From an uncultured candidatus Brocadiaceae bacterium (lineage in GTDB: Bacteria > Planctomycetota > Brocadiia > SM23-32): 64,000 nucleotides of DNA. A program made the translations under genes and the position numbers. The stretch spans positions 8,413 to 72,412 of the forward strand of contig CAZNGS010000009.1 in the NCBI GenBank assembly GCA_964572825.1, read 5' to 3'. Positions 8,444 through 64,000 of the stretch are shown piece by piece. Under the pieces are notes generated by a model. That model was not told the DNA's origin, ran no database searches, and worked only from the letters and a program-made list of their open reading frames with translations. Position 1 is the first letter of the stretch. Every line of letters starts with the position of its first letter.

Positions 8444-8500
8444 CCGCGCTCTACTCTCCGTTCCGGCATAGTCTGCTCAGCCGGCAATAGGCAGAGCGCG

Positions 8501-9667: not shown

Positions 9668-9797
9668 GGTCTGACTCCTGCAGTTCCAATGAAGGTCGGT
9701 ACTTCCCACATGCCCAACTCCGGGACAGTCTAAGCGAACCTTCCCCGGCCCACAATGGAAAACGGACGGGCACCGAGAGACGGCTACCCACTTGCCC

Positions 9798-35248: not shown

Positions 35249-35465
35249 GCACTCTCCAATTCCTTTCAGGCACCCGCGCCGGCCGGACATTCAACTTCGA
35301 TCCGTCCAGTGTACCCGTTGCTGCGCGGCGGGCAACTGCCGGCCGCGGCGGCCCGAACGCGTCCCGAACACGCTGGCCGGCCAGTTCCTTGAGATTACTG
35401 CGTCGTCGACCCACGAGTCCGTCGCCGGCCACCAGAACATTACGTTCCGCAATTGTCCGTCCCTG

Positions 35466-46311: not shown

Positions 46312-47106
46312 ATGCTCATCATCGGCGAAAGAATCAACGCCACCCGCGGGCCCATCGCCCGCGCACTCAAAGAACGCAACGCGGAGAAGATCGCACACGA
46401 GGCCCGCGTCCAGGCCGAAGCCGGGGCCGACTTTATCGACGTGAACGGCGCCAGCGACCCCTCGCACGAGGCCGAGAACCTGCGGTGGGCCCTGGAGGTG
46501 GTGCAGGAGGCCGTGAACCTGCCGGTCTGCGTGGACTCCGCCAATCCGGACATCCTGCGGGAGGCCGTCGAGCTGGTCGAGTCCGAGCGAATGATGCTCA
46601 ACTCCGCTACGGCCGAGGACGGCAAGCTGCAGACGGTCATGGACATCGCCGCCGGCACGGGCGCTCTCGTGGTGGCCCTCGCCATGGACGACAGCGGAGC
46701 GCCGGACACTGCTGAGCGGCGCGTGTCCGTCGCCGCCCGCCTGATTGAGGCCGCCGAGGAAGCCGGCGTCCCCCGGGAACGGGTTTACGTGGACCCCTGC
46801 GTGCAGCCCATCGGCACGGACGCCACCCAGGGCATGGAGGTCATCTCGGCGGTGTTCCGCATCATGCAGAACTTCCCCGGGGTGCACACCACGTGCGGAT
46901 TGTCCAACATCAGTTTCGGCCTCCCCAACCGCAGCCTCATCAACCGCACCTACCTGTCCTGCCTGATCGTGGCCGGCCTGGACTCCGCCATCCTCGATCC
47001 CACGGAAGAAGGCATGAAGGAGGCGATATGCGTCGGGAAGGTTCTCGCCGGGCGCGACGAATTCTGCATGGACTACATCCGCGCCATGCGGGACAGGGAA
47101 CCGTAG
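46312..47106 (+). CDS. pterin-binding methyltransferase (methyltetrahydrofolate:corrinoid methyltransferase, AcsE/MtrH/MetH-domain family)
   Basis: MLIIGERINATRG...FIDVNGAS...GLSNISFGLP is the pterin-binding (DHPS-like) methyl-H4folate methyltransferase signature. Confidence 0.75.
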   Translation: MLIIGERINATRGPIARALKERNAEKIAHEARVQAEAGADFIDVNGASDPSHEAENLRWALEVVQEAVNLPVCVDSANPDILREAVELVESERMMLNSATAEDGKLQTVMDIAAGTGALVVALAMDDSGAPDTAERRVSVAARLIEAAEEAGVPRERVYVDPCVQPIGTDATQGMEVISAVFRIMQNFPGVHTTCGLSNISFGLPNRSLINRTYLSCLIVAGLDSAILDPTEEGMKEAICVGKVLAGRDEFCMDYIRAMRDREP

Positions 47107-49435: not shown

Positions 49436-50376
49436 GGGCTGCCGAACATGTTGGAGAGCTCGGACCACCATTGCTGTGCCTGCGACCGCAGAGCGCCGGC
49501 CAGGGTCAGCGCCAACTGCGCCTCCAGCATCCCCGCCGGAGTCCCCACGTCGAACCTGGCCCCATCCACCACCAGGCCCCGGTAGGGTTCGGCCTCCGCC
49601 AACAGGTCCTGGGCCATGGTGAGCTGGAACTCGCCCCGCTGCCGTCGTCCCTCCCGGATCATGCGTTCCAGGATGTCGAAAATGCCCGGCGTGAACACGT
49701 GCATGCCGAAGTGGGTCAGGTAGCGCCCGTCCCCCAGCCCGGGGACCCGGCACCGTTCCCTGGCCACCTGGACGCTGGGTTTCTCGATGAACCCCTCCAC
49801 CTCTATCAAACTCGGAATGGCGTCCGCCGGACGGCCCCGTGCGACCCCGAAACGGCCCACCGCTCCCTCGGGCGAGGGCGTCAATGCGGTGAGACTGGCC
49901 CCTTCGAAAACGGTCACAAGCTGTCCAGCGCAGGGCCGCTCCGTACGGCTGATGTAGACGTGGTCGCCCAGCAACGCCAGGAAGGGCTCGTCCCCCACCC
50001 AGTCGCGTGCGCACCAGATGGCGTGTCCCAGCCCTTGCTGTTCCTCCTGGGGGACGAAACTCAGACGCTCGCCCATCTCCTGCAGCCTGTCCGACCACTG
50101 GAAGGCCCATTTCTTGCCTTCGTAGTGGGGGCGCGCGTGCTCGGGCATCGCTCTAAAGTAGCGGCGGAACTCCTCGCGCGCGCCGGGCTGGCACACAATG
50201 CAGACCTCCTCCACCCCGGCCGCCAGCGCCTCCTCCACGCCCATTTGCACCACGGGCTTGGTATACCCGTCGCGGTCCACCAGCGGAAAAAGCTCTTTGC
50301 GCACGCAGGAACTGGCCGGGTACTGGCGCGTGCCCATGCCGGCGGCCGGGATTACGGCCTTCTGCACCATTGTCAT
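49432..50376 (-). CDS. galU: UTP--glucose-1-phosphate uridylyltransferase
   Basis: MTMVQKAVIPAAGMGTRQYPAS...KELFPLVD is the GalU nucleotidyltransferase signature. The start is at the ATG 50376. Confidence 0.85.
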   Translation of the reverse strand: MTMVQKAVIPAAGMGTRQYPASSCVRKELFPLVDRDGYTKPVVQMGVEEALAAGVEEVCIVCQPGAREEFRRYFRAMPEHARPHYEGKKWAFQWSDRLQEMGERLSFVPQEEQQGLGHAIWCARDWVGDEPFLALLGDHVYISRTERPCAGQLVTVFEGASLTALTPSPEGAVGRFGVARGRPADAIPSLIEVEGFIEKPSVQVARERCRVPGLGDGRYLTHFGMHVFTPGIFDILERMIREGRRQRGEFQLTMAQDLLAEAEPYRGLVVDGARFDVGTPAGMLEAQLALTLAGALRSQAQQWWSELSNMFGSP

Positions 50377-50616
50377 ATCGGAGCCCCTTGATGGCAGAGC
50401 TTGTTCTACAGTCCGGCCTGCGCCGGAAAGGGATGCGGCGCCGCGAGGCGGCAAGGCGCAAGCCCTTCATTCTAACGCGACACCGTGGGACTGCAAAATG
50501 CCGGCGCGGACGGTTGTCTTTCGACCGGTGCTCTGATATGAAAGAGGATCGCCAGATGAAGGCATGCAGGGCAGAGACCGCTGGCTCAACGGCACTGCCC
50601 GACAGGAGCGAACGTC

Positions 50617-51942
50617 ATGATGACCTTTCCGGAGGGTTTCGTCTGGGGTGCTGCCACGTCCGCCTTCCAGGTCGAAGGGGCAGCGCGCGAAGACGGCAAA
50701 GCCCCCTCCATATGGGACACCCACGTGCACAAGCCGGGCACGGTCCGAGACGGCTCAAACGCCGACATCGCCGCCGACAGCTACCACCGCTGGCGGGAGG
50801 ACATCGAGTGCCTGAACGAGCTGGGCGCCGATGCCTACCGGTTCTCCATCTCCTGGCCCCGGGTCATTCCGGACGGACGCGGCCCCGGGAACCAGAAGGG
50901 CTTCGACTATTACAACCGCCTGATCGACGCCCTGCTGGAGAACGGCATCACTCCCTACGTCACCCTCTACCACTGGGACCTGCCGCAGGCCCTGGAGGAC
51001 CAGGTGGGCTGGGAAAGCCGGGAGATGGCGGGCATTTTCGCGGACTACGCCGGCCGCATGGTCGCCGCCTTCGGCGACCGCGTCACCCACTGGCTGACGT
51101 TCAACGAAATGCACGCCCTCGTCGATCAGGGCTACGGTACGGGAACCAAGGCGCCCGGGAAGAAACTGCCCGAAAAAGAGGTCACGCAGGTCTATCACCA
51201 CGTTCTGCTCGCCCACGGGAAGGCCGTCCGCCGCATGCGCGCCGAGCGGGATGGCCTGCAGATCGGCACGGCAGAGAATCCTCGCGCCTGCGTGCCCGTC
51301 GTCGCCACGGAGGAGAACATCCGGGCTGCACGCATCGCGTGGGACCGCCAGATCGGGTTCCTCTTCGAGCCCATGTACAACGGGCGCTACCCGGACGGGC
51401 TCGGCGTGTGTCCAGATGTGCGTGAGGGGGATATGGAGACCATCCGGGCAGACCTCGACCTGGTGGGGCTCAACTTCTACTTTGGCACCTACGTGGAGGC
51501 CAGCGACGAGCCGCCGTACTACCGCCGGTTCCCCTGGCCGGAATACCACCCTGCCGCGCCATCCGAGGGATGGATCCGGATGATTCCGGAGGTCGTCTAC
51601 TGGGGGGTGCGCTTCGCCGCCGAGAGATACGACGTCCCGGCCATCTACGTCTTCGAGAACGGTTTCCCCCTGCCCGGGGACGAGGACCCGGAACAGAACC
51701 TGAACGACGTGTCGCGCATCATGTTCGTGCGCAGCTACCTGACCGCCCTCCACCGGGCCGTTCGGGAGGGCTACCCGGTCAAAGGATACTTCTACTGGAC
51801 GCTGATGGATTCCTTCGAATGGGCCAGCGGCTTCGGGAGCCGTTTTGGCCTCTACCGGACCGATTTCGAAACCCTGGAGAGGACGCCCCGGCTGAGCGCC
51901 CGCTGGTACGGCGAGGTGGCGGCGCGTAACGCCATTGTCTGA
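50617..51942 (+). CDS. GH1 beta-glucosidase
   Basis: FPEGFVWGAATSAFQVEGA, the TLYHWDLPQ region with the TFNE acid/base glutamate, and the nucleophile region YVFENG are present. AGGAG sits upstream. Confidence 0.9.
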   Translation: MMTFPEGFVWGAATSAFQVEGAAREDGKAPSIWDTHVHKPGTVRDGSNADIAADSYHRWREDIECLNELGADAYRFSISWPRVIPDGRGPGNQKGFDYYNRLIDALLENGITPYVTLYHWDLPQALEDQVGWESREMAGIFADYAGRMVAAFGDRVTHWLTFNEMHALVDQGYGTGTKAPGKKLPEKEVTQVYHHVLLAHGKAVRRMRAERDGLQIGTAENPRACVPVVATEENIRAARIAWDRQIGFLFEPMYNGRYPDGLGVCPDVREGDMETIRADLDLVGLNFYFGTYVEASDEPPYYRRFPWPEYHPAAPSEGWIRMIPEVVYWGVRFAAERYDVPAIYVFENGFPLPGDEDPEQNLNDVSRIMFVRSYLTALHRAVREGYPVKGYFYWTLMDSFEWASGFGSRFGLYRTDFETLERTPRLSARWYGEVAARNAIV

Positions 51943-52104
51943 CGCCGCGGGCCCGGACCATTGCAGCGAGCGTCTCCTGCGGCCCTATCAGTAAACCAGC
52001 ACAAAACCCGGGTCTACCGCGGGCGGCCGCGACCGGTCGCAATACAGTATGCGCAAAGACCGCGTTTCCACCCGAGGTTCGCCTTCCGCCTGGAGGGACG
52101 TGAA

Positions 52105-55100
52105 ATGAAGCGAGTGGCCCTGTTGACGGTGACGATCCTGGCAGTCTGTTCATCTGGCCCGTGGGGAGTGGACGCAGGGGCGGCCGAGTATTCCTGGCAG
52201 CGGCCGCACGCCCGGGTCCTTCCGAGGGGTGACCTGGAATGGGCGCCGCAGCCTTTCGAGTTCCAGGCCGGCGACGTGGTCCGCTGCATCGACTACGAGG
52301 GCGGCGACGACGCCAATCCCGGCACGAAGGCCCGGCCCTGGAAGCATCACCCCTGGGACCCCGCCGCCACCGGCCGGGCGGCCCGGGCCTCCGGCCCGAT
52401 CACCTACCTCTTCAAACGCGGTGTCATCTACCGGGGCAGGCTCCTCGCCGACGAATCCGGCGAGCCGGGCAACCCCGTCCGCCTGACCAGCGATCCCGAC
52501 TGGGGCGAGGGCGAGGCCGCGTTCTATGGCTCCAGGCGCATCGAGGACGGCTGGAGGCGCTGCACGTCCTCGGACGTCCCCGAGCACATGCCGGAGCCGG
52601 CGAAGGTGTGGTACAAAGACATCGGCACCGAGTGGCGCCCGTGGGCCCTGTGGGAGCTGCGGGACGGGCAGGTCACGCGCATCCCGATCGCCAGGGAGCC
52701 GAACTGGCAGATCAGCAATCCGGACGATCCCCAGAGCGAGTGGCACGAATGGACCGGCCGCATCAAGGGCGAGGGCTCCATCGACACGGTGCACCTGACC
52801 CAGAAGGACCCCCACTTTTTCGACGGCGGCTTCGTCTGGACCGAATGGAGCGGCAACATGGGCACCATCCACCTCGCCGCCATCCGGGGATACGATCCGG
52901 ACCGCCACCTGCTGAAGGCCGGCAACGGCAGCAAGGGCAACCGCTACTACATCGAGAACGTGCCGGGTTTTCTGGACTCCCCCGGCGAGTATTACCACGC
53001 CATGGACGGCCCCCACGCGGGCCGGCTCTACCTGCGCCTGCCGGACGACCGCAACCCCAATGGCGCCATTCTGGAGGGCAGCGCCGTCAAGGTGCCCATC
53101 ACCATCATCGACCGGGCAAACATCGAGATCAGCGGGCTGCGGTTCAGCTTCAACGACGTGGGAGACCCGGGCACGGGCTGGCCGCCCGCCACGCAGGCGC
53201 CGGCCGCCATTCGGGTGGCCGGCAACTGCCGCAACATCCGCGTCTCCCACTGCCGGTTCCTCCATGTGATGAGCGTGCTGACCGCCTACCCCCGCATGAA
53301 CGAGAAGTACACTCAAATCTACCTGCGCGACCTGCTGCCCTGGCGAGAGGACCTGGTGGAGAACATATCCATCACGGACTGCGACATCGCTTACGTTGAC
53401 CGCCCGGCGATACAGTTCCGCACCGGGCGCATGCTGGGGCGCATCGAATGGCCGCCCGTGGGCAAGCTGGGAAACGTCGCCGTGCTGCGCAACCGGCTCC
53501 ACCACGTAAGCAACCGACCGGGCGACAACATGTACAGCGCCATCCCCGCCATTTCGGTGCTCTTCCCCCGGGAGGCGGAGATCGCCGGCAACATCGTGGA
53601 CCGCTGCTGGGGCAGCGGCATCTTCGTTTTCGGCGGCAAGGCCAGCGGGGCCATCGGAGAGGCGCCCCTGACCCGCATCCTGATCCACCACAACAAGGCC
53701 ACCGATACCATGCTCGCCTGCAACGACTACGGGGGCATCGAATACTGGCAGGGCGGCCCCATCTACGCCTTCTGCAACATCTCCGGCAACTCCATCGGCT
53801 ACAAGAATTACATCGATATCAAGAACCACTGGAAGACCGTGGCCTACAACATGTACCTGGACGGGACCTTCAAGAGTTACACCTTTAACAACATCATCTG
53901 GGGCAAGAGCAACGATCTGGACTACCCTTACCGCAACCGCGGGGCCTACTTCGTGGTCCTGGGCTTCATGGACCACTTCTTCAACAATACCGCCTGCAGG
54001 TTTATGCACGGCATCGTGGGCTCGTCCGGCAACCGATCCAGCTTCCTGGGCAACGTGCTGGACGACATCAGCGTCTCCTTCATCCAGCAGAACCGGCCCG
54101 GCGACACCAGCCTGCGGGGAGGTGGAGACACCGGCGCGATGGGCCAGCGCGGCATGCCCACCAATGCCTACGGCTACAACATCTTCGTGGGCGACAGTGA
54201 ACGCGGCGTGGGCTCCGCGCGGGACGTGGGCGGCCCCACCGTCCAGGACTGGCGGGCCGACCTGGAAGAGCTTGGCGCCTTCTGCGCTCAGACCGGCTGG
54301 CGGACCGACCGAAGTCCGCTGCGCGACGGAGAGAACCACGATTTCGGCCTCGTGCCCGATTCCGCCGCGCAGGACCGCGGCGTGAAGTTCTTCGTGCCCT
54401 GGGCCCTTTACGGCATGGCCGGAGAGTGGAATTTCTACCTCCACCCCGCCGACCCCGCAGTGGTGCTCGGGGAAGGTTTCTACATGACCGAGGAATACGT
54501 CGAGAGGCACATGTACAGCAACATCCCCCGTATGAACCTGGAAGTGCCCGGCGCCACCGAGCAGGATTACGTCCGGGGCCCCCTGGAGGACTGGGTCAAG
54601 GGGGCCCTGCGCTTCAACGGCACCGACCGCTACGCCGTCCTCACCCACGAGGCCATCACGCAGGACCGCACCTACGGCCACGGTGTCCCCGAGGGCGAAG
54701 ACCGCATGAGCAGAGGCGAATTCCCCTTCGAGGGCGAGGAGCGCAAAAGCCTGGACATGGAGACCAATGACTTCCTGGTGGAGACCTGCTTCAGGACCGA
54801 ACCGGGCCACACCGGGGGGACGCTGGTCTCGAAAATGGGAGACGCCGGCTACCGGGTCTGCGTCAACGAGCGGGGCGGCACCACGCTGCTGATCCGGCAC
54901 GGGGAGGCCGTTGACCGGGCCGAGTGCGGCACGGCGGTCAACGACGGCCGGTGGCACCACGTGCTCGCCGAAGCCGACCGCGAAAACGCAGAGCTGAACA
55001 TCTACGTGGACGGCCGGCGCACGCGGCGGGCCCGGACCCACAACGTACCCCGCGGCGCATCGCTCGCCAACACGGCCGACTTCCTGGTGGGCAAAAGCCC

Positions 55101-55284
55101 GGAGGGCGACTACTTCGCCGGCGCGATGGACTTCCTGCGGGTCAGCCGCGGCACGCTGGCCGATGCCAACACCACGATCGAGGAGATCTACGCCTGGCAG
55201 TTCGACGGCCCGTTCCTGCGCGACTTCCGCGGCAACGAACCGCTCGGGAAACGCGATGCCGGGGCCATTGAGGGTGTGCAGTAG
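52105..55284 (+). CDS. secreted right-handed parallel beta-helix (pectate-lyase-fold) protein with a C-terminal LamG/concanavalin-A-like domain
   Basis: A signal peptide (MKRVALLTVTILAVCSSG) is followed by PbH1-type beta-helix repeats (NxxxxHH, NIxxNxI patterns). The C-terminal about 180 aa are jelly-roll like (GTAVNDGRWHHVLAE...LNIYVDG...ADFLVGK). GGAGGG precedes the ATG at 52105. Confidence 0.7.
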   Translation: MKRVALLTVTILAVCSSGPWGVDAGAAEYSWQRPHARVLPRGDLEWAPQPFEFQAGDVVRCIDYEGGDDANPGTKARPWKHHPWDPAATGRAARASGPITYLFKRGVIYRGRLLADESGEPGNPVRLTSDPDWGEGEAAFYGSRRIEDGWRRCTSSDVPEHMPEPAKVWYKDIGTEWRPWALWELRDGQVTRIPIAREPNWQISNPDDPQSEWHEWTGRIKGEGSIDTVHLTQKDPHFFDGGFVWTEWSGNMGTIHLAAIRGYDPDRHLLKAGNGSKGNRYYIENVPGFLDSPGEYYHAMDGPHAGRLYLRLPDDRNPNGAILEGSAVKVPITIIDRANIEISGLRFSFNDVGDPGTGWPPATQAPAAIRVAGNCRNIRVSHCRFLHVMSVLTAYPRMNEKYTQIYLRDLLPWREDLVENISITDCDIAYVDRPAIQFRTGRMLGRIEWPPVGKLGNVAVLRNRLHHVSNRPGDNMYSAIPAISVLFPREAEIAGNIVDRCWGSGIFVFGGKASGAIGEAPLTRILIHHNKATDTMLACNDYGGIEYWQGGPIYAFCNISGNSIGYKNYIDIKNHWKTVAYNMYLDGTFKSYTFNNIIWGKSNDLDYPYRNRGAYFVVLGFMDHFFNNTACRFMHGIVGSSGNRSSFLGNVLDDISVSFIQQNRPGDTSLRGGGDTGAMGQRGMPTNAYGYNIFVGDSERGVGSARDVGGPTVQDWRADLEELGAFCAQTGWRTDRSPLRDGENHDFGLVPDSAAQDRGVKFFVPWALYGMAGEWNFYLHPADPAVVLGEGFYMTEEYVERHMYSNIPRMNLEVPGATEQDYVRGPLEDWVKGALRFNGTDRYAVLTHEAITQDRTYGHGVPEGEDRMSRGEFPFEGEERKSLDMETNDFLVETCFRTEPGHTGGTLVSKMGDAGYRVCVNERGGTTLLIRHGEAVDRAECGTAVNDGRWHHVLAEADRENAELNIYVDGRRTRRARTHNVPRGASLANTADFLVGKSPEGDYFAGAMDFLRVSRGTLADANTTIEEIYAWQFDGPFLRDFRGNEPLGKRDAGAIEGVQ

Positions 55285-55334
55285 TCACCCCGTGGCACGA
55301 CGGTCGGTCACGGCGGCAACTGGCTGATCGGGTG

Positions 55335-55363
55335 GGGGCGGGACGTTCTGCACGGTCCGCCCC
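55335..55363. terminator. GC-rich hairpin between convergent genes
   Basis: GGGGCGGGAC-gttctgcacg-GTCCGCCCC forms about 9 bp with one bulge. It lies between the stop of the beta-helix gene (55284) and the stop of the AraC gene (55381). No U-tract follows. Confidence 0.35.
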
Positions 55364-55380
55364 TCCGCGAGGCGCCATTG

Positions 55381-56178
55381 TCACGTCCCGTGGCTGCCGC
55401 GGTATGCCGTGGGGCTCTGGCCGGCGTATTGCTTGAAGGCGGTGGCAAAATACCGCTGGTTGGGAAACCCTACGCGGCGGGCTACGTTTTGTACTGGCAT
55501 GTAGGGTAAGTCCAGCAGCAGCCGCTGGGCTTCCCGCATCCGCAGATTCAGAACGTACTGCCAGGGCGGGGTGTCGAACGCACGAGCCCACCATCGCCGG
55601 AAGGTGGAGGGGCTGAACGCGAAGCGCTCGGCCACGTCCGCCACGGTGAACTGCTCTGCCAGGTGTGCCTGTAACCACTGCTCGGCGGCGTAGATGCGTC
55701 GTAGCGGCTCCCGTTCAACCCGTCGGCCGGAGCCAAATCTGCTGGTCAGCAGCATCAGCCGCACCAGCGCATCCAACTGGTCGGCTACGCCCGGGGCGGC
55801 CGCGTTTTCCATCAGTTGCACCGCGCGGGTGCGGAAGGCGTTCATCGTGGGCGGGTCCTTCATCGGCCAGGGGTGCTCCGGCCAGACGTCCAGCCGCAGG
55901 GTCGTGCCGCTGTCCGCCAAAACGGCGTGGAACTCGTCCCACGTCACGTCCGGACCGTATCGGTAACGTTGCCCGGGCCGGGCGAGGAATACGGCGGGGG
56001 CGGTGATCTCATGGCGGGCGCCACGGTGGATCAGGCGCCCGGTGCCCCGGAAGATAAACATCGCCGCAGGCCGTACGAATATATGGTCCACCGCGTGGTC
56101 CAACCCGGTGCGCCAGCCGACAACGTGCAGCCACGGCTCACCGGTTTTGCGCGAGTAGTCGTGGAGCCCGGTGATCAT
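55381..56178 (-). CDS. AraC-family transcriptional regulator
   Basis: A C-terminal double HTH carries the AraC signature (FSPSTFRRWWARAFDTPPWQYVLNLRMREAQRLL...VGFPNQRYFATAFKQYAGQSP). The N-terminus is cupin-like. Confidence 0.85.
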   Translation of the reverse strand: MITGLHDYSRKTGEPWLHVVGWRTGLDHAVDHIFVRPAAMFIFRGTGRLIHRGARHEITAPAVFLARPGQRYRYGPDVTWDEFHAVLADSGTTLRLDVWPEHPWPMKDPPTMNAFRTRAVQLMENAAAPGVADQLDALVRLMLLTSRFGSGRRVEREPLRRIYAAEQWLQAHLAEQFTVADVAERFAFSPSTFRRWWARAFDTPPWQYVLNLRMREAQRLLLDLPYMPVQNVARRVGFPNQRYFATAFKQYAGQSPTAYRGSHGT

Positions 56179-56402
56179 ATATCAAACATATCCGACGGCA
56201 AAACGGACACGAAAACGCTTTCTAGTGCCGCTTGAGCAACCTATAATATACACTCGCATTGCAGGAATCTCAAACATGCGCGCGGGACCCCGCGTAGACC
56301 TGCGGCGGAGCAAGGTCCCGGCGCAGCGTCCGGACCGACTCCCCGGAGGAAGGGTTTACGCTGGGCGCTCAGATCAGATTACCCCCGGACGGAGGCAGGC
56401 AG

Positions 56403-57638
56403 ATGGCGCAAGCAGTGTACAAAGACGTGCGGGTTCTGGATTTCACGCAGTACCAGCAGGGCCCGGTCGCCACTCAGATGCTGGGCGACTTTGGGGCCGA
56501 AGTCATCAAGATCGAACGTCCCGGGAGCGGTGACGGTTTCCGCGGCAGCAGCGCAACCGGCAGCCTCAACGCCGACCTGGAGGGCGGCTACAGCAAGGCG
56601 TTCATCGCCTGCAATCGGAACAAGAAGAGCATCACGGTCAACCTGAAGAGCGAAAAGGGCACGCAGATTGTCCACGAGTTGGTGAAACTCTCCGACGTGG
56701 TGGTTTCGAATTTCCGCCCCGGTGTGATGGAGCGCCTGGGGCTGGGATACGACGAACTGAGCCAGATCAACCCCGGGATCATCTGCGCCTACGGCACGGG
56801 CTACGGCCTGACCGGCCCCGACCGCGACACGCTGGGGCAGGACATGATGGCCCAGTGCCGCGGAGGTCTGGTCAGGGGCGATCCTCCCCGCAAGGTCGGG
56901 TTCAACGTCTGCGACCAGATGGGGGGCTTCCTGCTGGCGATGGGCGTCATGCTGGCGCTGGCTGCGCGTGAGAAGACGGGAAAGGGGCAGATAGTGGATT
57001 CAAATCTGCTCAACACCGCGGTTGTGGCCGACAGTCTGGCGGCCACCGTTTACCTCAACTCGGAGAATTATCCGCCCGAACCTGAAGAGAAGCAAGGGTC
57101 CGAACAGGACCATGAGCCGAACATGCCCAATCCGACCTACGCCCTCTACCAGGCGGCTGACGGCAGATGGGTGCACATCATTGACGCCTTCCGCGACGAG
57201 CCGCTCCGGCGCCAGTGCCGGGCGCTGGACATCCCCGAGGAGGTGGCCGACGATCCCCGTTTCCAGGATGTCCATAACCTCAGCCCGGAAGCCTACGAGG
57301 AACTGAAGGGCATCCTGGCCGAAGCAGTGGCGAAGTTCACGGCCGAACAGGTGGTCAAGCGGTTCGAAAAACAGGATATGATGGCGGTGCCGGTCAACAG
57401 CTACCGCGAAACCTTCCAGGACCCCCAGGTGCTGCACAACAACATGGTCATCGAGGCACAGCATCCGCGGGCCGGCAAGATGAACCTGGTCGGTTTCCCC
57501 ATCAAGCTTTCCGATACACCGGCCGAACTGCGTGACCCGCCACCCCTGCTGGGCGAGCACAACGAAGAGGTGCTCGGCGACCTGCTGGGAATGAGCGACG
57601 AGGAGATCGAGACACTCAGGGACGAAGGCGTCATCTGA
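56403..57638 (+). CDS. family III CoA-transferase (CaiB/BaiF/Frc family)
   Basis: VRVLDFTQYQQGPVATQMLGDFGAEVIKIERP and a GYGLTGP region are present. The product is about 411 aa. GGAGG precedes the ATG. Confidence 0.85.
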   Translation: MAQAVYKDVRVLDFTQYQQGPVATQMLGDFGAEVIKIERPGSGDGFRGSSATGSLNADLEGGYSKAFIACNRNKKSITVNLKSEKGTQIVHELVKLSDVVVSNFRPGVMERLGLGYDELSQINPGIICAYGTGYGLTGPDRDTLGQDMMAQCRGGLVRGDPPRKVGFNVCDQMGGFLLAMGVMLALAAREKTGKGQIVDSNLLNTAVVADSLAATVYLNSENYPPEPEEKQGSEQDHEPNMPNPTYALYQAADGRWVHIIDAFRDEPLRRQCRALDIPEEVADDPRFQDVHNLSPEAYEELKGILAEAVAKFTAEQVVKRFEKQDMMAVPVNSYRETFQDPQVLHNNMVIEAQHPRAGKMNLVGFPIKLSDTPAELRDPPPLLGEHNEEVLGDLLGMSDEEIETLRDEGVI

Positions 57639-57668
57639 AAAGGACCTTCATAGAGGGGAGAGATAGCG

Positions 57669-58193
57669 GTGAGCGACGAGGAAAGGCAGATCATTACCGA
57701 CGAGGCGCTGGAGAAGCTCCGCGTGGGCGAACTGATCGACACCTATCAGTTTACGGTGACGGACAAGTGGGTGAAGAAATACGCCATGACCATTGAGGAT
57801 CCCAATCCCCTGTGGTTCGAGGACGAGTACGCCGAGCGAGAGGGCCGGTTTGGCCGCCGGGTCGCTCCCGCCGCGTTCTGCGTGGCCATGAACCCCATGG
57901 AAGCCAAAGGCTGCTGTCCGGCCAGCGCTTTCTGGGCCGAGCTGTACGGGGTCCCCGACCACGGGCATCACTGGGGCGGGCTGGCCGCCTACAACGAGTT
58001 CGAGTACGAGAAGCCGATCTACGTCGGCGACACGATAACCTGCGAGGTGCGCAACCGGCGTGCCTACGAGAAGCAGGGCTCGGAGGCCGTGCTGGTCATC
58101 GCCGAGACCGAGTATAAGATGATAAACCAGGACGACGAGACCGTCGGGATCGGCGTCTACGGCAACCTGGTCCAGTTCGGCAACGAGGACTGA
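57669..58193 (+). CDS. MaoC-like (hotdog-fold) dehydratase, N-terminal-half type subunit
   Basis: At 174 aa it resembles the N-terminal non-catalytic hotdog half of split MaoC / mesaconyl-CoA-type hydratases. GTG start with GGGGAG. Confidence 0.55.
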   Translation: MSDEERQIITDEALEKLRVGELIDTYQFTVTDKWVKKYAMTIEDPNPLWFEDEYAEREGRFGRRVAPAAFCVAMNPMEAKGCCPASAFWAELYGVPDHGHHWGGLAAYNEFEYEKPIYVGDTITCEVRNRRAYEKQGSEAVLVIAETEYKMINQDDETVGIGVYGNLVQFGNED

Positions 58194-58247
58194 GCACCGG
58201 CCGAGCCAGGGGATGCTCCTCCAGATCACCGCGAGGGAGAATACACG

Positions 58248-58733
58248 ATGTCTACTGCGCAGCTTTACTACGAAGACGTGAGCGTCGGCGACAACGTCCG
58301 TCCGCTCTACTTCTACATGGACCAGATGCAGCTCATCAAATGGGGCGAGGTCACCGGCAACAGCGACGCGGGCCACTGGCACATCTGGCACAACCGGCAC
58401 AAGGAGGTCTCCACCACCGAAACCGAGCGCAGCGGCCACGACCCCTCCGTGACCGGCCAGTTCAAAACGGCCCTGATGGAAAAGATGCTGATGGACTGGG
58501 CCGGCTCGCGCGCCTGGGTCAAGAAGATGTCCGTCCAGTACCGCGTCTGGGACCACTTCTTCGAACTGAAGACCTTTACCGGCACCGTCACCGGCAAGCG
58601 GCAGCAGGACGGCGAGAACCTGGTCGACCTGGAGGTCCAGATGGCCCGCGAGGACGGCCGCAGGACCACCAGGGGCACCGCGACGATCGCCCTGCCGTCC
58701 GCCTCGAAAAAGGAACCGGAGAGCAGCGAATGA
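58248..58733 (+). CDS. MaoC-like (hotdog-fold) enoyl-CoA hydratase/dehydratase subunit
   Basis: At 161 aa it is a hotdog fold. It pairs with the preceding gene. Its stop overlaps the next ATG as ATGA. Confidence 0.55.
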   Translation: MSTAQLYYEDVSVGDNVRPLYFYMDQMQLIKWGEVTGNSDAGHWHIWHNRHKEVSTTETERSGHDPSVTGQFKTALMEKMLMDWAGSRAWVKKMSVQYRVWDHFFELKTFTGTVTGKRQQDGENLVDLEVQMAREDGRRTTRGTATIALPSASKKEPESSE

Positions 58734-60868
58734 AAAGGCTCCTGGCGGCCGCCGCGCTGGTCATCCTGGTGAGTTCCTGCGCAAGCGTCGGTCCGGCTCC
58801 GCCGGGCTGCCACATGGCCGCTTCACACACCGTTGTCGCCGGCCAACCCGCCGAACTCGGAATCCGCGGAAAGGCCGCGCATCTGGAGATCGAGCAGACG
58901 CTCGAGCCCGGCGGACCGGTCGAGCAATGGAAGGCGGACAACCAGAAGGCGCGGGAAAACGGCGAGCGTTTCCCGGACAAGCTGACCGTGGCCAGGCTGG
59001 CCGTGAGCTATGCCGACGGCCGGGGTGTGGAAGCCGATATCCGCTACAACGAAAGCGTCGGCGCGCTCCGGCGGGAGTGGTGGAACCCCGTCGACGGTTT
59101 CATCCATCACCTCGCCTTCGCGCAGGTGGCCTGGACGCGCCCGATCGGGGAGAGCGGCCTCCGGCACAACGTGGTCTACCGGATGAGATGGGCCAATCCG
59201 CGCCCCGAGGTGGCCATCAGGTCGATTGAGGTGAAGCCGGCAGAGGGTCTGGGCGAGGGGAGACTCCTGATCTTCGATGCAGCCACCGGGTCCACGCCGT
59301 CCGCGGGCGCAACTTACTTCGTGGCGCCCGACGGCGACGATTCCGCCCCCGGCACTTTCGATCGACCGTGGACAACCCTCCACAAGGCCGCCGAAACCAT
59401 CCAGTCGGGCGATACGGTGTACGTCCGCGGGGGTACCTACCGGCCGACCGAGCGGATACTCTTCAAGTACATCGACGCGCCTGAGGGGCAGCGCACCCGC
59501 ATCATCGGCTACCCCGGCGAGACCGCGACCTTCGACTTCATGGACGCTCACTGGGACACCAGCCCGGAACGCCGGCAGTACGGCTTCGAGCCGTATCCCC
59601 ACGATCAATCCATGATCATGGCCTATGACTGCGACCGTTTTACGTTCAAGAACCTGCATCTGACCCGCTCGCGGGCGCGCGGGTTCGGCATGGAGACCGG
59701 CTGGTGGAAGTGGGCTCACCGGGACAACCTGATCGACGGCGGCAGGCCGGAGGTGGTCAATAACACCCCGTTCCAGGATTCCGAAATCTGCTACTGTTCG
59801 ACGTACATGACCTACAACGCGGGGATCCGGTTCCGCGGCGCCCGTAAGGGCAGACTGATAGGCAACGTCCTCATGCGCCCCGAGACGATCGCCATGGGCC
59901 CCGCGGATCCGAAGAATCCCGGCTCCGGCCCCGTGGCGGGGCTGGACGCCACCACGTTCTACTCGCGGAGCGGCAACAAGAAGCGCAACCCCCCCATGGA
60001 GGGAATCGACGGGGGAGGCTTCCACGACGTGGAGGTCGCCTACAACGAGATATGCTGGGGCGACAAGGAGTGCTTTCTTATCGACGGGGACGTGGACGGC
60101 CTGCGCGTGCACCACAATTACGTGCACGATGCCTGGAACCTGCCCTGGGTCGGCGGCATCTCCCCCAACGGCTACGGCCGGCAGGAGGACATCAAGATCG
60201 ACCACAACATCGCCCACCACGTGGGCACAGGCTTCGGCATAGGCACGGAAGGCGGCGGCTGGGGCAAACGGGTCCGCATTCACCACAACCTCGCCTATGA
60301 CTGCCACTGGTCCGGCGTGGGGGTCAGCGGCGCGTGGAAGAGTAACGCAAGCCTTTATGACATCTCGGTCTACAACAACACGCTGTTTCACAACGGCCAC
60401 TACACCCGCAATCCCCGTATCCGGTGGCGCGAGAACAGGGGGCCGGCTGGGGGCATCTCGGTCAGCTTCCCTGCCGAAGACCTGGAGGGGGTTGTGGAGG
60501 ACGTCGTGGTCGCCAACAACCTGATTCTGCGACCCCGGGACTACGCCCTGACCCTCAACGGGGAGGGCGATCCGGAGGAAAGCAACATCGTCTTCACCCA
60601 CAACGTGACCGACCTGGAGGCCGAAAGCGACATCTTCGACCTCGAGCGCAACAGTGGCTGGCACCCGGTTCGAGACGACGGCCTCCTGGTGGTCGAAAGG
60701 CCGCTCCTCCGGGACCCGCGGGACCGGGACTTCCGCCTCGTGCCCTCCACCCCGGCCACAGACGCCGGCATCGCCATCAATCCCCGGGGCAAACCCGACC
60801 CGGAGGGCGGGAAGACCTGCGTCGGCGCCTTCGGGCCGGACTCGAAATGGGTGGAGCTGGACCCGTGA
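58730..60868 (+). CDS. beta-helix (pectate-lyase-fold) lipoprotein with an N-terminal uncharacterised domain
   Basis: A signal peptide with a lipobox (LVILVSSC) is present. An N-terminal domain ends in RWANPRPEVAIRSIEV. Then come FVAPDGDDSAPGTFDRPWTTLHKAAETIQSGDTVYVRGGTY and multiple HHN/NN beta-helix rungs. GGAGAG RBS. Confidence 0.7.
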   Translation: MKRLLAAAALVILVSSCASVGPAPPGCHMAASHTVVAGQPAELGIRGKAAHLEIEQTLEPGGPVEQWKADNQKARENGERFPDKLTVARLAVSYADGRGVEADIRYNESVGALRREWWNPVDGFIHHLAFAQVAWTRPIGESGLRHNVVYRMRWANPRPEVAIRSIEVKPAEGLGEGRLLIFDAATGSTPSAGATYFVAPDGDDSAPGTFDRPWTTLHKAAETIQSGDTVYVRGGTYRPTERILFKYIDAPEGQRTRIIGYPGETATFDFMDAHWDTSPERRQYGFEPYPHDQSMIMAYDCDRFTFKNLHLTRSRARGFGMETGWWKWAHRDNLIDGGRPEVVNNTPFQDSEICYCSTYMTYNAGIRFRGARKGRLIGNVLMRPETIAMGPADPKNPGSGPVAGLDATTFYSRSGNKKRNPPMEGIDGGGFHDVEVAYNEICWGDKECFLIDGDVDGLRVHHNYVHDAWNLPWVGGISPNGYGRQEDIKIDHNIAHHVGTGFGIGTEGGGWGKRVRIHHNLAYDCHWSGVGVSGAWKSNASLYDISVYNNTLFHNGHYTRNPRIRWRENRGPAGGISVSFPAEDLEGVVEDVVVANNLILRPRDYALTLNGEGDPEESNIVFTHNVTDLEAESDIFDLERNSGWHPVRDDGLLVVERPLLRDPRDRDFRLVPSTPATDAGIAINPRGKPDPEGGKTCVGAFGPDSKWVELDP

Positions 60869-61086
60869 CAGCCTTGGCGCAGGGGGTGAAGACCGCCGGA
60901 AGAACGCATCCGGTGAAACTACTGGCCGTCTGGGGGCACTGAGGGCCTCCCGGCCCCTTTGCCGTTCCTCGCCACAAGCGTTACGCGCTGACGGTTGGAC
61001 ACGCCTGTCCGCAGTTGACATAAGGCGAGTCTGGGATTACACCCGCGTATGAACCTTGCTACGCTTTCCGGGATGTGCGAGCAATC

Positions 61087-63909
61087 ATGCCACAAGTCTC
61101 GACGGTAACGCTGTGCGCGCTGGTCGGAATCCTCTGGCTCTTGCTGATGCCGTGCAGTGCCCGCGCCGCGACAGGCGGGAGCCCGATCTCCGTTCCGGGA
61201 GTACACTTGAACGCCACACGGCGGGCGGAGGACGGTCCCGTATGGTTCCGGCGCGAGGGAGTAGATTATAACCTGTCCGATTTCCCCCCAGGGGACGTTG
61301 AACTCGACGGCTTAGAATGGCATGTTTCCGAACGCGGCGTGCTGATGCTCGCGGGGGCAGGCTCCCCGGTCCACCAATCCGATGTCAAAGGCATACCGGT
61401 GGGGCGGAAGGCCGACTCGCTGCATTTCCTGCACACCTTCAACCCCGGCCCCGCGCTGGAGTGGTGGAAAATCAGACTGGCGGTCGAGAAGGAGAAGTTG
61501 AGCAAACCGCCCGCTCCGCCCGTCCTGTTCCGCTACGTGGTGCACTACGAGGACGGGCAGAGCGTCCCGGCGAAGGTCCGCTGGAACGAGGGCATCGGCG
61601 ACTGGTTGCGGGTCGGCCCCATCCCGGAGATGGGCTGGGCGCGTCCGGCCTGGACGAAGAAAGTCGAGGAGCCCCGCGGCGGGCGGCTGGCGGTCTACGC
61701 CATGCACTGGCCCAACCCCCGGCCGGAGGAGACGATCGCCTCGATCGACGTGGTGACCAGCAATGACGTTTACCGGGACTACGGTGCCCCCGCCGTGCTG
61801 GGGATAACCGCCGAGACCGGTTCCCTGCGGGGCCGGCGCCGCTACGTCTCCAGGGACGGGCGGGATTCCAACCCCGGAACGTTCCAGAAGCCCTGGCGGA
61901 CGCTCCATAAGGCGACCGAGGCCCTGGAGCCGGGCGACAGCGCCTACGTCCGCGGCGGCTACTACGGACCCACCGAGCAGATTCTGGTGACCCGGTCCGG
62001 CGAGGAAGACGCCTGGATCACCTACTCCGGCTATCCGGGCGAGACCGCCGTGCTGGACGCCTGCCACCACCTGCCGCCGGCCGACTACGAGGGGCCGCCC
62101 AACTGGAGCGACTGGGGCTTCTTTCAACTCAAGAAGGTGCACCACGTGCGGGTGCAGAACCTCACCATCCAGCGCTCCCGCCGGCAGGGGCTGAACATCT
62201 TCGAATCCAACCACGTCGAGGTGCTCTACAACACTTTCTACAAAACCGCCGAGTGCGGCATGCGCACCTACGCCCACTGGTGGCGGGCTCGCGGCCTGGA
62301 ATGGTCGCATCACGTGCGCATCTACGGCAACAACCTGGCCCGCGTGCACGATAAGACCATGCATCGGAACGAACACGATGCGGTCGTTCCCCGGCCGACC
62401 ACCGGCCACGAGGGCATCACCATCGCATGGACCGACGGATTCGAGATCGGCTTCAACGAGATCTACGGCTGCGGCAAGGAGGCGATCGACTGCAAGAACG
62501 CCAACCGCAACGGCCGCATTCACCACAACTACCTGCACGACGGCACCGCCACGGGCATCTACCTGGATGGATGGGGCCAGGACATCGAGAACATGGAGAT
62601 ATTCGAGAACACCCTCCACAATCTCGGCGGCATCTCCATCAGCAGCGAGCAGTCGGGCGGCACGCTGAGCACTATCCACGTGCACCACAACCTCCTGTGG
62701 GACATCCTCGTGAGCGGCATCTCCGTCAACAGCCACTACGCCAGGGAGAAGAGCCCCAAGCGCGAAGTGCTGGTCGAGCACAACACCGTGCACCGGGCCG
62801 GCTATCCCTCCGCCCGGTGGGGGTGGTGGGGCGCCGGCATCAGCCTGACGGGCGGCGCGCTGGAGGACGTCACCGTCCGGGACAACACCGTCACGGACAA
62901 CGTGGGCGCCCAGATAGCTCTGGACCCCGACGCCCGCGAGTCCGGAGGGGTGCAGGTGGTCAACAATCTGTCCCACCCCATGGTCGGTGAGCGCCCCGGC
63001 CAGCGCGACAGGCGTCGCGGTGTGGCCGGTGAAGACCCCGTGCTGAAACCGCCCCGCTACGTCGACCCGGAAGACGGTGACTTCCGACTGCGGCCGGGCT
63101 CCCCCGCGCGGGGCGCCGCCACGGACGGCACTGACCTGGGCGCACTGCACGAGGATTCCGGCGTCCTCCACTGGCAGAGCCTGGCGCGGGTGGACCAGGA
63201 CTTCGGCGATCCCGCCCTGGCAACAGCGACCGGTCAGCAGCCGGTCGACATACCCGGCCGGCTGCTGAACACCCGGGTTCATCGGCTCGGGTGGCAGAAC
63301 GCCCTCTACAACTTCAGCCTGCACTACAACTACGACTTGCTGCCCCTGCCGGTGGGCGAAACTGCGCTGAGCGGGGTCCGGTGGTTCCTGCCCGACCACG
63401 CCGACACCGGCGCCCCCACCCTGATCACCCTGAAGGGCTTCGGCTCGCAGGCGGAGGAGACCGCGGTTCGGGGCATCCCCGTGGGGCAGCGGGCGGACGC
63501 ATTGTTTTTCCTGCATGCCTTCAACCGCGGACCGGCCGCGCGAGAGTGGGAGCGAAAGGACGAGGGAGCCGCCTCGGCGCCCACGGTGTTCCACTACATC
63601 GTTCATTACGGGGACGGAGCGTCTGCGAAGATTCCGGTGAAATACAGGGTCAACATCGACCAGTGGCTGCGCAAACGCCCGGAGGACGGCCTGCTGCCGG
63701 GTCTGCCGGGGGCGCAGGTGGCGTGGGACCGGCAGGTCTGGCATCGCTGGGGCCACCGCGGGCATGAGTCCATCCGCATTTACCGGATGAGCTGGGAGAA
63801 CCCTCACCCGGAGAAAACGATCGAATCCCTGGACGTTGTGAGCGCCAACGACGAGGAACACGACTGGGGCTCGCCAGCCGTGCTGGGTATCACCACCGGC
63901 AGACAGTGA
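61087..63909 (+). CDS. secreted beta-helix protein, paralog of 58730..60868, with the uncharacterised domain duplicated at its N- and C-termini
   Basis: A signal peptide (MPQVSTVTLCALVGILWLLLMPCSARAA) is present. GIPVGRKADSLHFLHTFNPGPA...HWPNPRPEETIASIDVV lies at the N-terminus. The same module (GIPVGQRADALFFLHAFNRGPA...WENPHPEKTIESLDVV) repeats at the C-terminus. The central region (YVSRDGRDSNPGTFQKPWRTLHKATEALEPGDSAYVRGGYY plus beta-helix rungs) is homologous to 58730..60868. Confidence 0.7.
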   Translation: MPQVSTVTLCALVGILWLLLMPCSARAATGGSPISVPGVHLNATRRAEDGPVWFRREGVDYNLSDFPPGDVELDGLEWHVSERGVLMLAGAGSPVHQSDVKGIPVGRKADSLHFLHTFNPGPALEWWKIRLAVEKEKLSKPPAPPVLFRYVVHYEDGQSVPAKVRWNEGIGDWLRVGPIPEMGWARPAWTKKVEEPRGGRLAVYAMHWPNPRPEETIASIDVVTSNDVYRDYGAPAVLGITAETGSLRGRRRYVSRDGRDSNPGTFQKPWRTLHKATEALEPGDSAYVRGGYYGPTEQILVTRSGEEDAWITYSGYPGETAVLDACHHLPPADYEGPPNWSDWGFFQLKKVHHVRVQNLTIQRSRRQGLNIFESNHVEVLYNTFYKTAECGMRTYAHWWRARGLEWSHHVRIYGNNLARVHDKTMHRNEHDAVVPRPTTGHEGITIAWTDGFEIGFNEIYGCGKEAIDCKNANRNGRIHHNYLHDGTATGIYLDGWGQDIENMEIFENTLHNLGGISISSEQSGGTLSTIHVHHNLLWDILVSGISVNSHYAREKSPKREVLVEHNTVHRAGYPSARWGWWGAGISLTGGALEDVTVRDNTVTDNVGAQIALDPDARESGGVQVVNNLSHPMVGERPGQRDRRRGVAGEDPVLKPPRYVDPEDGDFRLRPGSPARGAATDGTDLGALHEDSGVLHWQSLARVDQDFGDPALATATGQQPVDIPGRLLNTRVHRLGWQNALYNFSLHYNYDLLPLPVGETALSGVRWFLPDHADTGAPTLITLKGFGSQAEETAVRGIPVGQRADALFFLHAFNRGPAAREWERKDEGAASAPTVFHYIVHYGDGASAKIPVKYRVNIDQWLRKRPEDGLLPGLPGAQVAWDRQVWHRWGHRGHESIRIYRMSWENPHPEKTIESLDVVSANDEEHDWGSPAVLGITTGRQ

Positions 63910-64000
63910 GGCGAGGACTCGATCACAACATGAGCACACAAAGGGACGCCCGTGTCAGGTAGAATCAGTTCACCCATCGTCTTTTTGGCCGTCTCCGTTT

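Follow-up and report, generated by a model that had tools for sequence, protein, structure and literature searches.

The itaconate and mesaconate routes combine a family III CoA-transferase (Ict or Mct) with a MaoC-type hydratase (Ich or Mch) and a lyase. In the AcuN-AcuK acrylate pathway, a CoA-transferase is paired with an acryloyl-CoA hydratase (PMC5651017). Planctomycete fucoidan loci encode GH29, GH95, and GH141 enzymes, sulfatases, and a regulator (PMC11685898), and the paper that describes them mentions no hydratase and no relevant CoA enzyme. Many of the enzymes with which planctomycetes and verrucomicrobia break down recalcitrant glycans of algae and microbes are of unknown family.

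We analyzed a 64,000-nt stretch of DNA (the window) from an uncultured candidatus Brocadiaceae bacterium, in which a sequence-only reading had described three secreted beta-helix proteins around an AraC regulator, a CoA-transferase, and a split MaoC hydratase. That reading proposed a polymer-to-acyl-CoA pathway, which our results support in part. Our literature search for the CoA-transferase/hydratase module found nothing relevant.

Gene content and layout of the locus

The open reading frames and translations agreed throughout with the gene coordinates given earlier. The gene of a GH1 beta-glucosidase (50617..51942, plus strand; Pfam Glyco_hydro_1, 1.9e-137) lies directly 5' of that of P1 (52105..55284, plus strand), a secreted right-handed beta-helix protein of 1,059 aa. 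An AraC/XylS-family regulator gene (55381..56178, minus strand) is divergent from the gene of a cytoplasmic family III CoA-transferase, here called CoAT (56403..57638, plus strand), and the 224-bp intergenic region between the two (56179..56402, no strand assigned) is the presumed control region. CoAT is followed in the same orientation by two hot-dog subunits, HydA (57669..58193, plus strand), which is similar to HadA or to an N-terminal MaoC half, and HydB (58248..58733, plus strand), which resembles HadB/ChsH. Next come P2 (58730..60868, plus strand), a lipoprotein of 712 aa, and P3 (61087..63909, plus strand), a secreted protein of 940 aa. The gaps are 30 nt between CoAT and HydA and 54 nt between HydA and HydB, and P3 starts 218 nt after P2. 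Reading the letters directly at the HydB/P2 junction (...GAATGAAAAGG...) bore out the ATGA stop/start overlap of 4 nt reported earlier (58730-58733, plus strand).

Hydrophobic N-termini, defined by a 12-aa Kyte-Doolittle window above 2.7, were limited to P1, P2, and P3 and were absent from GH1, CoAT, HydA, and HydB. From these N-termini, P1, P2, and P3 are predicted to be exported; GH1 has no signal peptide. None of the genes at 49432-63909 matched the SusC, SusD, or TonB-receptor families, and the cluster is therefore not a Bacteroidota-type polysaccharide utilization locus. The AraC-CoAT-HydA-HydB-P2 unit encodes no transporter, lyase, dehydrogenase, or thioesterase, which leaves the proposed pathway incomplete as encoded. 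The earlier reading had also cited GH1 and nearby sulfatases as signs of glycan degradation. GH1 is indeed adjacent and passes the NCBIfam BGL cutoff (491 versus 478.5 bits), but the sulfatase genes (2411-5682) are ~46 kb from the cluster, with housekeeping genes between, and are irrelevant to it.

P1, P2, and P3 as beta-helix proteins

All three proteins have the right-handed parallel beta-helix (pectate-lyase-like) fold that had been proposed for them, and the lipoprotein character of P2 and the C-terminal LamG domain of P1 (aa 887-1019; nt 54763-55161) were likewise recovered. In a structure-library search, the best match of P1 was the GH141 protein BT_1002. The relationship is weak in sequence, with a profile-to-PDB E value of only 0.055, no match to Pfam GH141_M, and 12 to 18% identity to BT_1002 and to the beta-helix families GH120 and GH136. 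P1 also differs from GH141 in being ~450 aa longer and in carrying the LamG domain. GH141 is the closest description of P1, as a likeness in fold. The family of P1 comprises at least 830 proteins of ~1,050 to 1,100 aa. Among solved structures, the nearest in sequence to the P1 and P2 profiles was PDB 9rx2 ("Parallel beta-helix repeat protein"), which was absent among the matches listed in either structure-library search and of which we found no mention in the literature.

In P2, an accessory domain (aa ~31-190; nt 58820-59299) precedes the beta-helix (aa ~192-700). P3 (Pfam Beta_helix, 5e-20) has its beta-helix between two accessory domains (nt 61207-61821 and 63319-63906). The accessory domain common to P2 and P3 also occurs on GH2-like enzymes, and at the N terminus of P2 it is probably glycan binding. 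Six polar residues of the P2/P3 superfamily (E424, E435, N439, K446-E447, and E507) are invariant down to 26% identity, and D427, H461/H462, and H518/H519 are nearly so. Three P2/P3 paralogues are encoded on the contig of the window alone. A fourth, P0042, came up solely beside ThuA on a contig of 3.8 kb. One P2 orthologue (65% identity; locus L004) sits among two sulfatases and a GH29 fucosidase.

For P2 and P3, we rejected an assignment to the PL9 pectate/rhamnogalacturonan lyases (Pel9A-like). The match was limited to positions 7 to 63 of 370 in PF22842, the N-terminal cap, with matches to the PL9 structure 5olq spanning ~50 residues, and the PelN scores of 42 and 35 bits were far from the cutoff of 740. 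For P1 to P3 as a group, no CAZy family could be assigned, as sequence matches to PL9, GH120, and GH141 spanned only the ~50-aa N-terminal cap or short stretches. Pfam domains of the autotransporter-barrel or cell-wall-anchor kind were also absent from the three proteins, whose C-termini are formed by LamG in P1, a short tail in P2, and, in P3, an accessory domain. Judged by their sequences, they are neither autotransporter passengers nor plain adhesins, the class that would have undone the earlier reading. We infer that P1, P2, and P3 are catalytic and that P2 is a carbohydrate-active-type beta-helix enzyme.

CoA-transferase, hydratase pair, and regulator

The family assignments made earlier held for the regulator (HTH_18), the transferase (CoA_transf_3), and the split MaoC-type hydratase (FAS1_DH_region for HydA and a family profile for HydB). 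CoAT matched CoA_transf_3 (PF02515) with 355.7 bits over profile positions 2 to 366 of 366, which places it in family III (CaiB/BaiF). Its best solved relative was SUGCT 9br6 (3.7e-63), and the CoA-transferases nearest to it act on dicarboxylates in central or organic-acid metabolism. CoAT scored below every NCBIfam equivalog cutoff tried: formyl-CoA (229 bits versus 442 to 504), succinate-glutarate (207 versus 750), succinyl-CoA:mesaconate (210 versus 700), and carnitine (76 versus 413).

HydA (FAS1_DH_region, 3.2e-19) carries the motif E-D-P-N-P-L-W, invariant in 10 homologues, in which the Asp is kept and His is replaced by Trp. HydB had no match in the Pfam search. The profile of its family of 27 proteins matched ChsH1, ChsH2, and the MaoC protein 4rv2, with an E value of 1e-5 that was reached only with this profile. 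Its motif is T-G-N-S-D-A-G-H-W, in which Asn38 takes the place of the canonical Asp and an Asp follows two residues on. The canonical MaoC/hydratase-2 motif G-D-x-N-P-[LIV]-H, with its Asp/His dyad, is found in neither subunit, and hydratase activity itself is therefore only putative. The noncanonical motifs lower the claim of HydA and HydB to MaoC membership; family-level homology is present, and a related activity is possible. The HadA-like gene and its HadB/ChsH-like neighbor were kept together in every context examined. We predict that HydA and HydB form a heteromeric MaoC-type (R)-hydratase/dehydratase.

The regulator has the C-terminal double HTH and N-terminal ligand domain of the AraC/XylS family (HTH_18, 2.4e-20; HTH_AraC, 3.3e-14; AraC_binding, 2.4e-4, just above the cutoff). 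The AraC-CoAT intergenic region contains two promoter-like sites on the minus strand, in a region-wide count no higher than in shuffled sequences, and the promoter and terminator scan as a whole also gave counts no higher than shuffles. An Rfam scan of 50000-64000 at an E value of ≤1 gave no match and hence no riboswitch clue to the ligand.

Conservation of the neighborhood

All relatives compared were MAG or metagenome contigs; a metagenome scan with the HydB profile yielded only four loci, one of them useful. The conserved unit is the AraC gene and CoAT-HydA-HydB, followed by a gene for a secreted protein, and of P1 to P3 only P2 belongs to it. The "cluster of three" of the sequence-only reading is thus composite, although all three beta-helix genes are present.

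Of seven informative lineages, three have a beta-helix gene of the P2/P3 family directly after HydB, one of the three being a Verrucomicrobiales MAG. In the first lineage (L029/L030), AraC-CoAT-HydA-HydB-P2 is kept, and the gene calls also show the 4-nt overlap; the remainder of P2 (70% identity) is on L003, from the MAG of L029/L030. The Verrucomicrobiales MAG (L013) has the AraC gene, CoAT (64%), HydA (53%), HydB (61%), and, 42 nt on, a secreted 636-aa beta-helix protein. ORFs between AraC and CoAT in L013 were not homologous to those adjoining AraC in another locus (L023) and were dropped. In the third lineage (L031/L032), CoAT-HydA-HydB precedes a 911-aa P3-like beta-helix gene and then GHL6. 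Co-conservation with the module, on which the earlier reading depended, is thus retained in three independent lineages.

No beta-helix gene directly follows HydB in the other four of the seven module lineages. Other neighbors of the module were a PQQ-like propeller and an HZS_alpha-like protein (L027), an HZS_alpha-like protein (contig P0099), a PF13204 GH140-like protein (L038), and a sulfatase (L041). Counting all such neighbors, a secreted or CAZyme-type gene lies beside the module in seven of seven informative lineages. AraC orthologues adjoin the module in L029 (72%), L013 (43%), L023 (44%), and L038 (39%). L038 also encodes a 706-aa double CoA-transferase; we rejected a DddD-like reading of it, as it matched only generic family III models and no DddD model.

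Seen from the beta-helix side, the linkage is looser. The CoAT-HydA-HydB module was missing at 9 of ~10 P2/P3-family loci with an upstream flank, so the module is not required by these beta-helix enzymes in general, and the earlier claim of linkage holds for the three lineages but not for most P2 orthologues. The order of P1 and P3 is kept in a close relative, with another cassette between them, and L035 has a P3 orthologue (75%) downstream of one of P1. The genes of these two secreted beta-helix proteins make up a conserved pair of their own, into which the CoAT-HydA-HydB-P2 cassette is inserted. GH1 is not a conserved neighbor: it is not beside the P1 orthologues in L033 and had no match in L006.

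Discussion

Our main reading, to which we give a probability of roughly 40%, is that the AraC-controlled CoAT-HydA-HydB and secreted-enzyme operon couples attack on an extracellular glycan to processing of an acid as its CoA thioester. P2, probably helped by P1 and P3, would depolymerize or trim a complex glycan outside the cell, probably a fucose-rich or sulfated one, and a carboxylic-acid product or substituent of it would be taken up. CoAT would make the CoA thioester of this acid, with succinyl-CoA or acetyl-CoA, for example, as the donor. HydAB would hydrate or dehydrate the thioester, and the resulting 3-hydroxyacyl- or enoyl-CoA would pass into central metabolism. The gene identities and folds, the export signals, the common orientation, the HydB/P2 overlap, and the recurrence in two phyla are shown here; catalysis by P1 to P3, the kind of substrate, its uptake, and the hand-over to CoAT and HydAB are inferred. 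Lactyl-CoA (from fucose), 3-hydroxybutyrate or a polyester, and itaconate or mesaconate are candidate substrates, none of which the data favor.

A broader version of this reading, which we consider doubtful, is that in Planctomycetota and Verrucomicrobiota the cassette represents a branch of glycan catabolism that has gone unrecognized. Here, a new beta-helix CAZyme family (P2/P3) would free an acidic, nonstandard constituent of fucose-rich or sulfated polymers, to be metabolized as a CoA thioester by a family III transferase and a heteromeric hot-dog hydratase, the catalytic residues of the latter being divided or rearranged between its subunits. A functional coupling would mean that these secreted beta-helix enzymes are a new family and their accessory domain a new and widespread one, that the catalytic residues of a hot-dog hydratase have been rearranged, and that there is a CoA-dependent step in the use of glycan-derived carbon that is missing from current models of polysaccharide utilization. 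The compact five-gene unit is suited to direct expression and assay.

The strongest competitor, somewhat unlikely in our estimate, is that only adjacency or coregulation connects the genes. CoAT-HydA-HydB would then be a self-contained module for catabolism or detoxification of a small acid, for example an enoate or a C4-C5 dicarboxylate, that shares no metabolite with the secreted enzymes and is sometimes cotranscribed with its neighbors. The affinity of CoAT to transferases of organic-acid metabolism is in keeping with this, as are the many P2 orthologues that lack the module. These genomes are packed with genes for secreted enzymes, beta-helix proteins included (the three P2/P3 paralogues on one contig are an example), what follows HydB is not constant (a beta-helix, propeller, or HZS_alpha-like gene, or a convergent one), and P1 and P3 flank another cassette in a close relative. 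However, the beta-helix neighbor recurs in three lineages and two phyla, at 53 to 65% identity for the module and ~30% for the beta-helix. Synteny is not normally kept at such distances without selection, which counts against mere adjacency, as do the retained 4-nt overlap and the secreted or CAZyme-type neighbor that accompanies the module in every informative lineage.

It is improbable that P2 and P3 instead remodel the cell's own surface or matrix, as epimerase- or lyase-type enzymes acting on its exopolysaccharide in the manner of AlgE/AlgG or RbmB, with CoAT and HydAB supplying or recycling an acyl substituent. That P1 to P3 are noncatalytic adhesins or structural beta-helices, which would make the link to CoAT and HydAB meaningless, is very improbable given the missing autotransporter barrel and cell-wall anchor, the acidic, Lys, and His residues of the helix core that are invariant across 26 to 65% identity, the accessory domain also borne by GH2-like enzymes, and the orthologues in CAZyme and sulfatase contexts.

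With the planctomycete and verrucomicrobial CAZyme clusters for sulfated fucans (PMC11685898), the locus shares secreted beta-helix enzymes, a transcription regulator, and the absence of SusC/SusD. Unlike these, it has a CoA-transferase/hydratase module and no sulfatase or fucosidase of its own, and P1 to P3 fit no recognized GH or PL family. As in AcuN-AcuK (PMC5651017), the genes for CoA transfer to a small acid and subsequent enoyl-CoA hydration would stand side by side; there is no DMSP lyase here, the module is joined to a secreted-enzyme gene, and the crotonase fold of AcuK/AcuH is replaced by a split MaoC hot-dog pair with noncanonical motifs. The pairing of a family III CoA-transferase with a MaoC-type hydratase recalls the itaconate and mesaconate routes, but the score of CoAT is far under the mesaconate cutoff, the hydratase is split into two genes, and none of eight contexts examined has a citramalyl- or malyl-CoA lyase gene. 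Relative to mycobacterial HadAB/HadBC and ChsH1-ChsH2, identity is very low, Asn stands in for the catalytic Asp in HydB, and the partner genes are neither fatty-acid-synthase nor steroid genes; the organization is nevertheless the same, with two small neighboring hot-dog genes of which HydA is HadA-like and noncatalytic in type.

Gene order and sequence features of the cluster

We established gene order in the window (G+C, ~66%) from ORF listing, translation, and third-position G+C. On the plus strand, the GH1 beta-glucosidase gene (50617-51942) precedes P1 (52105-55284), the first of three beta-helix protein genes. The AraC-family regulator gene (55381-56178, minus strand) diverges from the plus-strand genes for a family III CoA-transferase (CoAT; 56403-57638), the hot-dog subunits HydA (57669-58193) and HydB (58248-58733), P2 (58730-60868), and P3 (61087-63909). 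Together, the ORF, Pfam/NCBIfam, model, and N-terminus evidence confirmed the sequence-only reading of the cluster, apart from its claim that sulfatases lie nearby: these are located at 2411-5682, and the ~45 kb between them and the cluster is taken up by housekeeping genes (SMC, LigA, NrdD, RpoN, TatC, RecR, and DnaX among them). The ATGA overlap between the HydB stop and the P2 start was read in the sequence, and both Pfam and NCBIfam supported the AraC regulator and a full-length CoA-transferase. The LamG domain of P1 was recovered as well. Hydrophobic export-type N termini were present in P1, P2, and P3, for which signal peptides had been proposed, and in no other protein of the cluster, and the lipobox V-S-S-C agrees with P2 being a lipoprotein. 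At the CoAT-HydA-HydB module, we found no riboswitch and no convincing promoter or terminator signal.

Elsewhere in the window, a 993-amino-acid (aa) ORF with Fe-S, Fer4_20, and Pyr_redox_2 domains (47129-50110, minus strand) overlaps a same-strand nucleotidyl-transferase ORF (49432-50454, minus strand) by ~680 nt. Its true start is probably much further downstream, as its Pfam domains begin only at aa 438. A 264-aa pterin-binding/CdhD-like protein of the methyltransferase type (46312-47106, plus strand) is encoded by itself, flanked by dnaX and the oxidoreductase gene. A 1,116-aa protein with PQQ_2/BamB-like beta-propeller repeats (31940-35290, minus strand) is of the same kind as the large propellers found between the beta-helix genes of related locus L035 and after HydB in L027.

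Beta-helix proteins and their accessory domain

Pfam/NCBIfam matched beta-helix repeats in P3 and, weakly, in P2, while P1 had no beta-helix match in Pfam. The AlphaFold model of P1 (pLDDT, 89.8) is a right-handed beta-helix, bearing out the fold assigned earlier, and its best matches are GH141 BT_1002, GH136, and GH120. P1 belongs to a large, uncharacterized family of at least 830 proteins (~1050-1100 aa), whose named members are labeled by their sources only as LamG/concanavalin A-like or hypothetical. P2 and P3 are paralogues (29% identity); a fourth paralogue, P0042, is encoded on the same 90.6-kb contig beyond the window. Across 14 members of the P2/P3 superfamily (26-65% identity), E424, E435, N439, K446, E447, N463, E507, and N520 (P2 numbering) are invariant and D427, H461/H462, and H518/H519 nearly so, which argues for a conserved active site. 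Likeness of P2 and P3 to PL9 (5olq), GH120 (3vst), and PelN stops at the ~50-residue N-terminal cap, and no CAZy family could be assigned to them.

P2 and P3 share an accessory domain of ~170-200 aa, present once in P2 (N-terminal; 58820-59299) and twice in P3 (N-terminal, 61207-61821; C-terminal, 63319-63906). It carries the motifs FLHT..PGP, Y.V.Y.DG, and W.NP.PE..I.S.D, has no Pfam model, and matched 2072 cluster representatives at an E value of ≤1e-3. In the sampled matches, it is C-terminal on ~1700-aa GH2-like, other beta-helix, and CBM_AftD-containing proteins, a placement suggesting that it is probably an undescribed accessory module of glycan enzymes.

CoA-transferase and putative hydratase subunits

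The nearest relatives of CoAT are transferases of the dicarboxylate type (SUGCT 9br6 at 3.7e-63), with formyl-CoA, succinate-glutarate, and mesaconate models also among the closest, and CoAT scores far under every equivalog cutoff. HydA is HadA/FAS1_DH-like by Pfam and NCBIfam. HydB had no match in Pfam; when a profile was built from its family of 27 members, it hit ChsH1 and ChsH2 as well as a MaoC protein in the PDB. The pair look like two halves of a putative double hot-dog hydratase of the HadA/HadB or ChsH1/ChsH2 kind. Neither contains the canonical G-D-x-N-P-x-H dyad. HydA has E-D-P-N-P-L-W, with Asp kept and Trp for His, invariant in 10 homologues; HydB has G-N38-S-D40-A-G-H43-W, against VSGDLNPIHW of 4rv2, with Asn at the Asp position and His kept, and N38 and H43 are nearly invariant across its family. 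These noncanonical hydratase-2 motifs are complementary, and each is conserved across its own family.

Module contexts across lineages

We examined the contexts of the HydB and P2 families, grouped by lineage; the relatives come from MAGs labeled "Ca. Brocadiaceae" or Brocadiia, Verrucomicrobiales, and Phaeodactylibacter. The window and L029/L030 (lineage i) share AraC followed by CoAT-HydA-HydB-P2 and have the 4-nt overlap in common. The remainder of P2 (70%) lies on L003, which belongs to the MAG of L029/L030, and L001/L002 are the window's own sequence, ending within HydA. Verrucomicrobiales locus L013 (ii) has AraC, CoAT (64%), HydA (53%), HydB (61%), and, 42 nt past HydB, a secreted 636-aa P2/P3-family beta-helix. 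In L031/L032 (iii), the module is followed by a P3-like 911-aa protein and GHL6. In L027/L028 (iv), a secreted PQQ-like propeller and a secreted HZS_alpha-like protein, with a domain resembling hydrazine synthase alpha (L027 10522-14737), occupy the beta-helix slot right after HydB. The P0099 contig (v) has HydA-HydB adjoined by a convergent, secreted-type HZS_alpha-like gene. In stromatolite metagenome loci L038-L040 (vi), AraC and then HydA-HydB are accompanied by a convergent gene of the PF13204 (GH140-like) type and by a double CoA-transferase (L038 6827-8947, minus strand; 706 aa, two family III domains). L041-L044 (vii) read sulfatase-CoAT-HydA-HydB. L023 (viii) reads AraC-CoAT-CoAT-HydA-HydB and is uninformative, as its contig ends there; its stretch 6076-10020 holds the tandem CoAT copies (68% and 63% identical to that of the window) and, where the contig stops, another HydB-like ORF that is partial, so that the module is locally duplicated.

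In all seven informative lineages, the module is flanked by a secreted or CAZyme-type gene, and in three of them the gene right after HydB encodes a P2/P3-family beta-helix; AraC accompanies the module in 5 of the 8 lineages, L023 included. Conversely, of ~10 P2/P3-family loci with sequence upstream, only 1 carries the module. The link between the CoA module and the beta-helix genes is therefore asymmetric: a secreted partner, in many cases from the P2/P3 family, usually goes with the module, and the family is mostly module free. Module-free L004, for example, combines a 65% P2 orthologue with another beta-helix, two sulfatases, an FAD oxidoreductase, a GH29 fucosidase, and a URO-D-like gene. 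URO-D-family (uroporphyrinogen decarboxylase/methyltransferase-like) genes occur near the module or P2 orthologues on three unrelated contigs (L027 4006-5136, L041 4765-5868, and L004 13174-14574). No lyase, dehydrogenase, thioesterase, or transporter gene was found beside the module in any context examined.

All three beta-helix genes of the described cluster are present, and their grouping is composite. L035 (345-13527), a close relative, retains P1 (81%) and P3 (75%) orthologues in order and strand. A regulator of the LacI type, a P3-like beta-helix, and a methyltransferase/PQQ-propeller protein take the place of AraC-CoAT-HydA-HydB-P2 there, which looks like a cassette swap. L033 has a 72% P1 orthologue alone amid housekeeping genes, L006 has P2 and P1 orthologues 6 kb apart without the module, and GH1 was not found beside P1 at the other P1 loci examined. 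From these arrangements, the conserved functional unit is predicted to be AraC/CoAT-HydA-HydB-P2, with P2 its only beta-helix gene; P1 and P3 are a separate, recurrently co-located pair. The P1 orthologue of L006 (17980-21275) is broken into three overlapping ORFs, reflecting a frameshift (assembly error) or a pseudogene.

Interpretation and comparison with known systems

The best-supported reading, all of it in silico and on genomes of uncultured organisms, is an AraC-controlled catabolic operon pairing a secreted glycan enzyme with CoA-thioester processing; we tentatively give it a probability of about 0.4. P2 would act on an extracellular glycan as a lipid-anchored beta-helix enzyme, and CoAT and HydAB would then handle the acidic product released in the form of its CoA thioester. 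Orthologue contexts and the GH141-like P1 suggest that the glycan is probably fucose rich or sulfated. Acrylate, 3-hydroxybutyrate, C5 dicarboxylates, and lactyl-CoA were weighed as substrates, and none was singled out.

The main rival, mere adjacency or coregulation of the module and a secreted gene with no metabolite transfer, is favored by the varying partner gene and the many orthologues without the module; we give it a somewhat lower probability than the best-supported reading. Remodeling of the cell's own matrix seems distinctly improbable. That the beta-helix proteins are noncatalytic adhesins is very improbable, as Pfam detected neither an autotransporter barrel nor an anchor in P1-P3.

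In the literature searched, we found no description of an operon, conserved across phyla, that couples a split MaoC pair and a family III CoA-transferase to a secreted enzyme gene, of the accessory domain, or of the rearranged HydA/HydB motifs. Regulator-bearing CAZyme clusters are ordinary in Planctomycetota and Verrucomicrobiota, and enzymes built on a right-handed beta-helix are of a known kind. The logic of the proposed CoAT/HydAB operon is analogous to that of the itaconate and mesaconate routes. It likewise resembles the AcuN-AcuK route of acrylate (PMC5651017).
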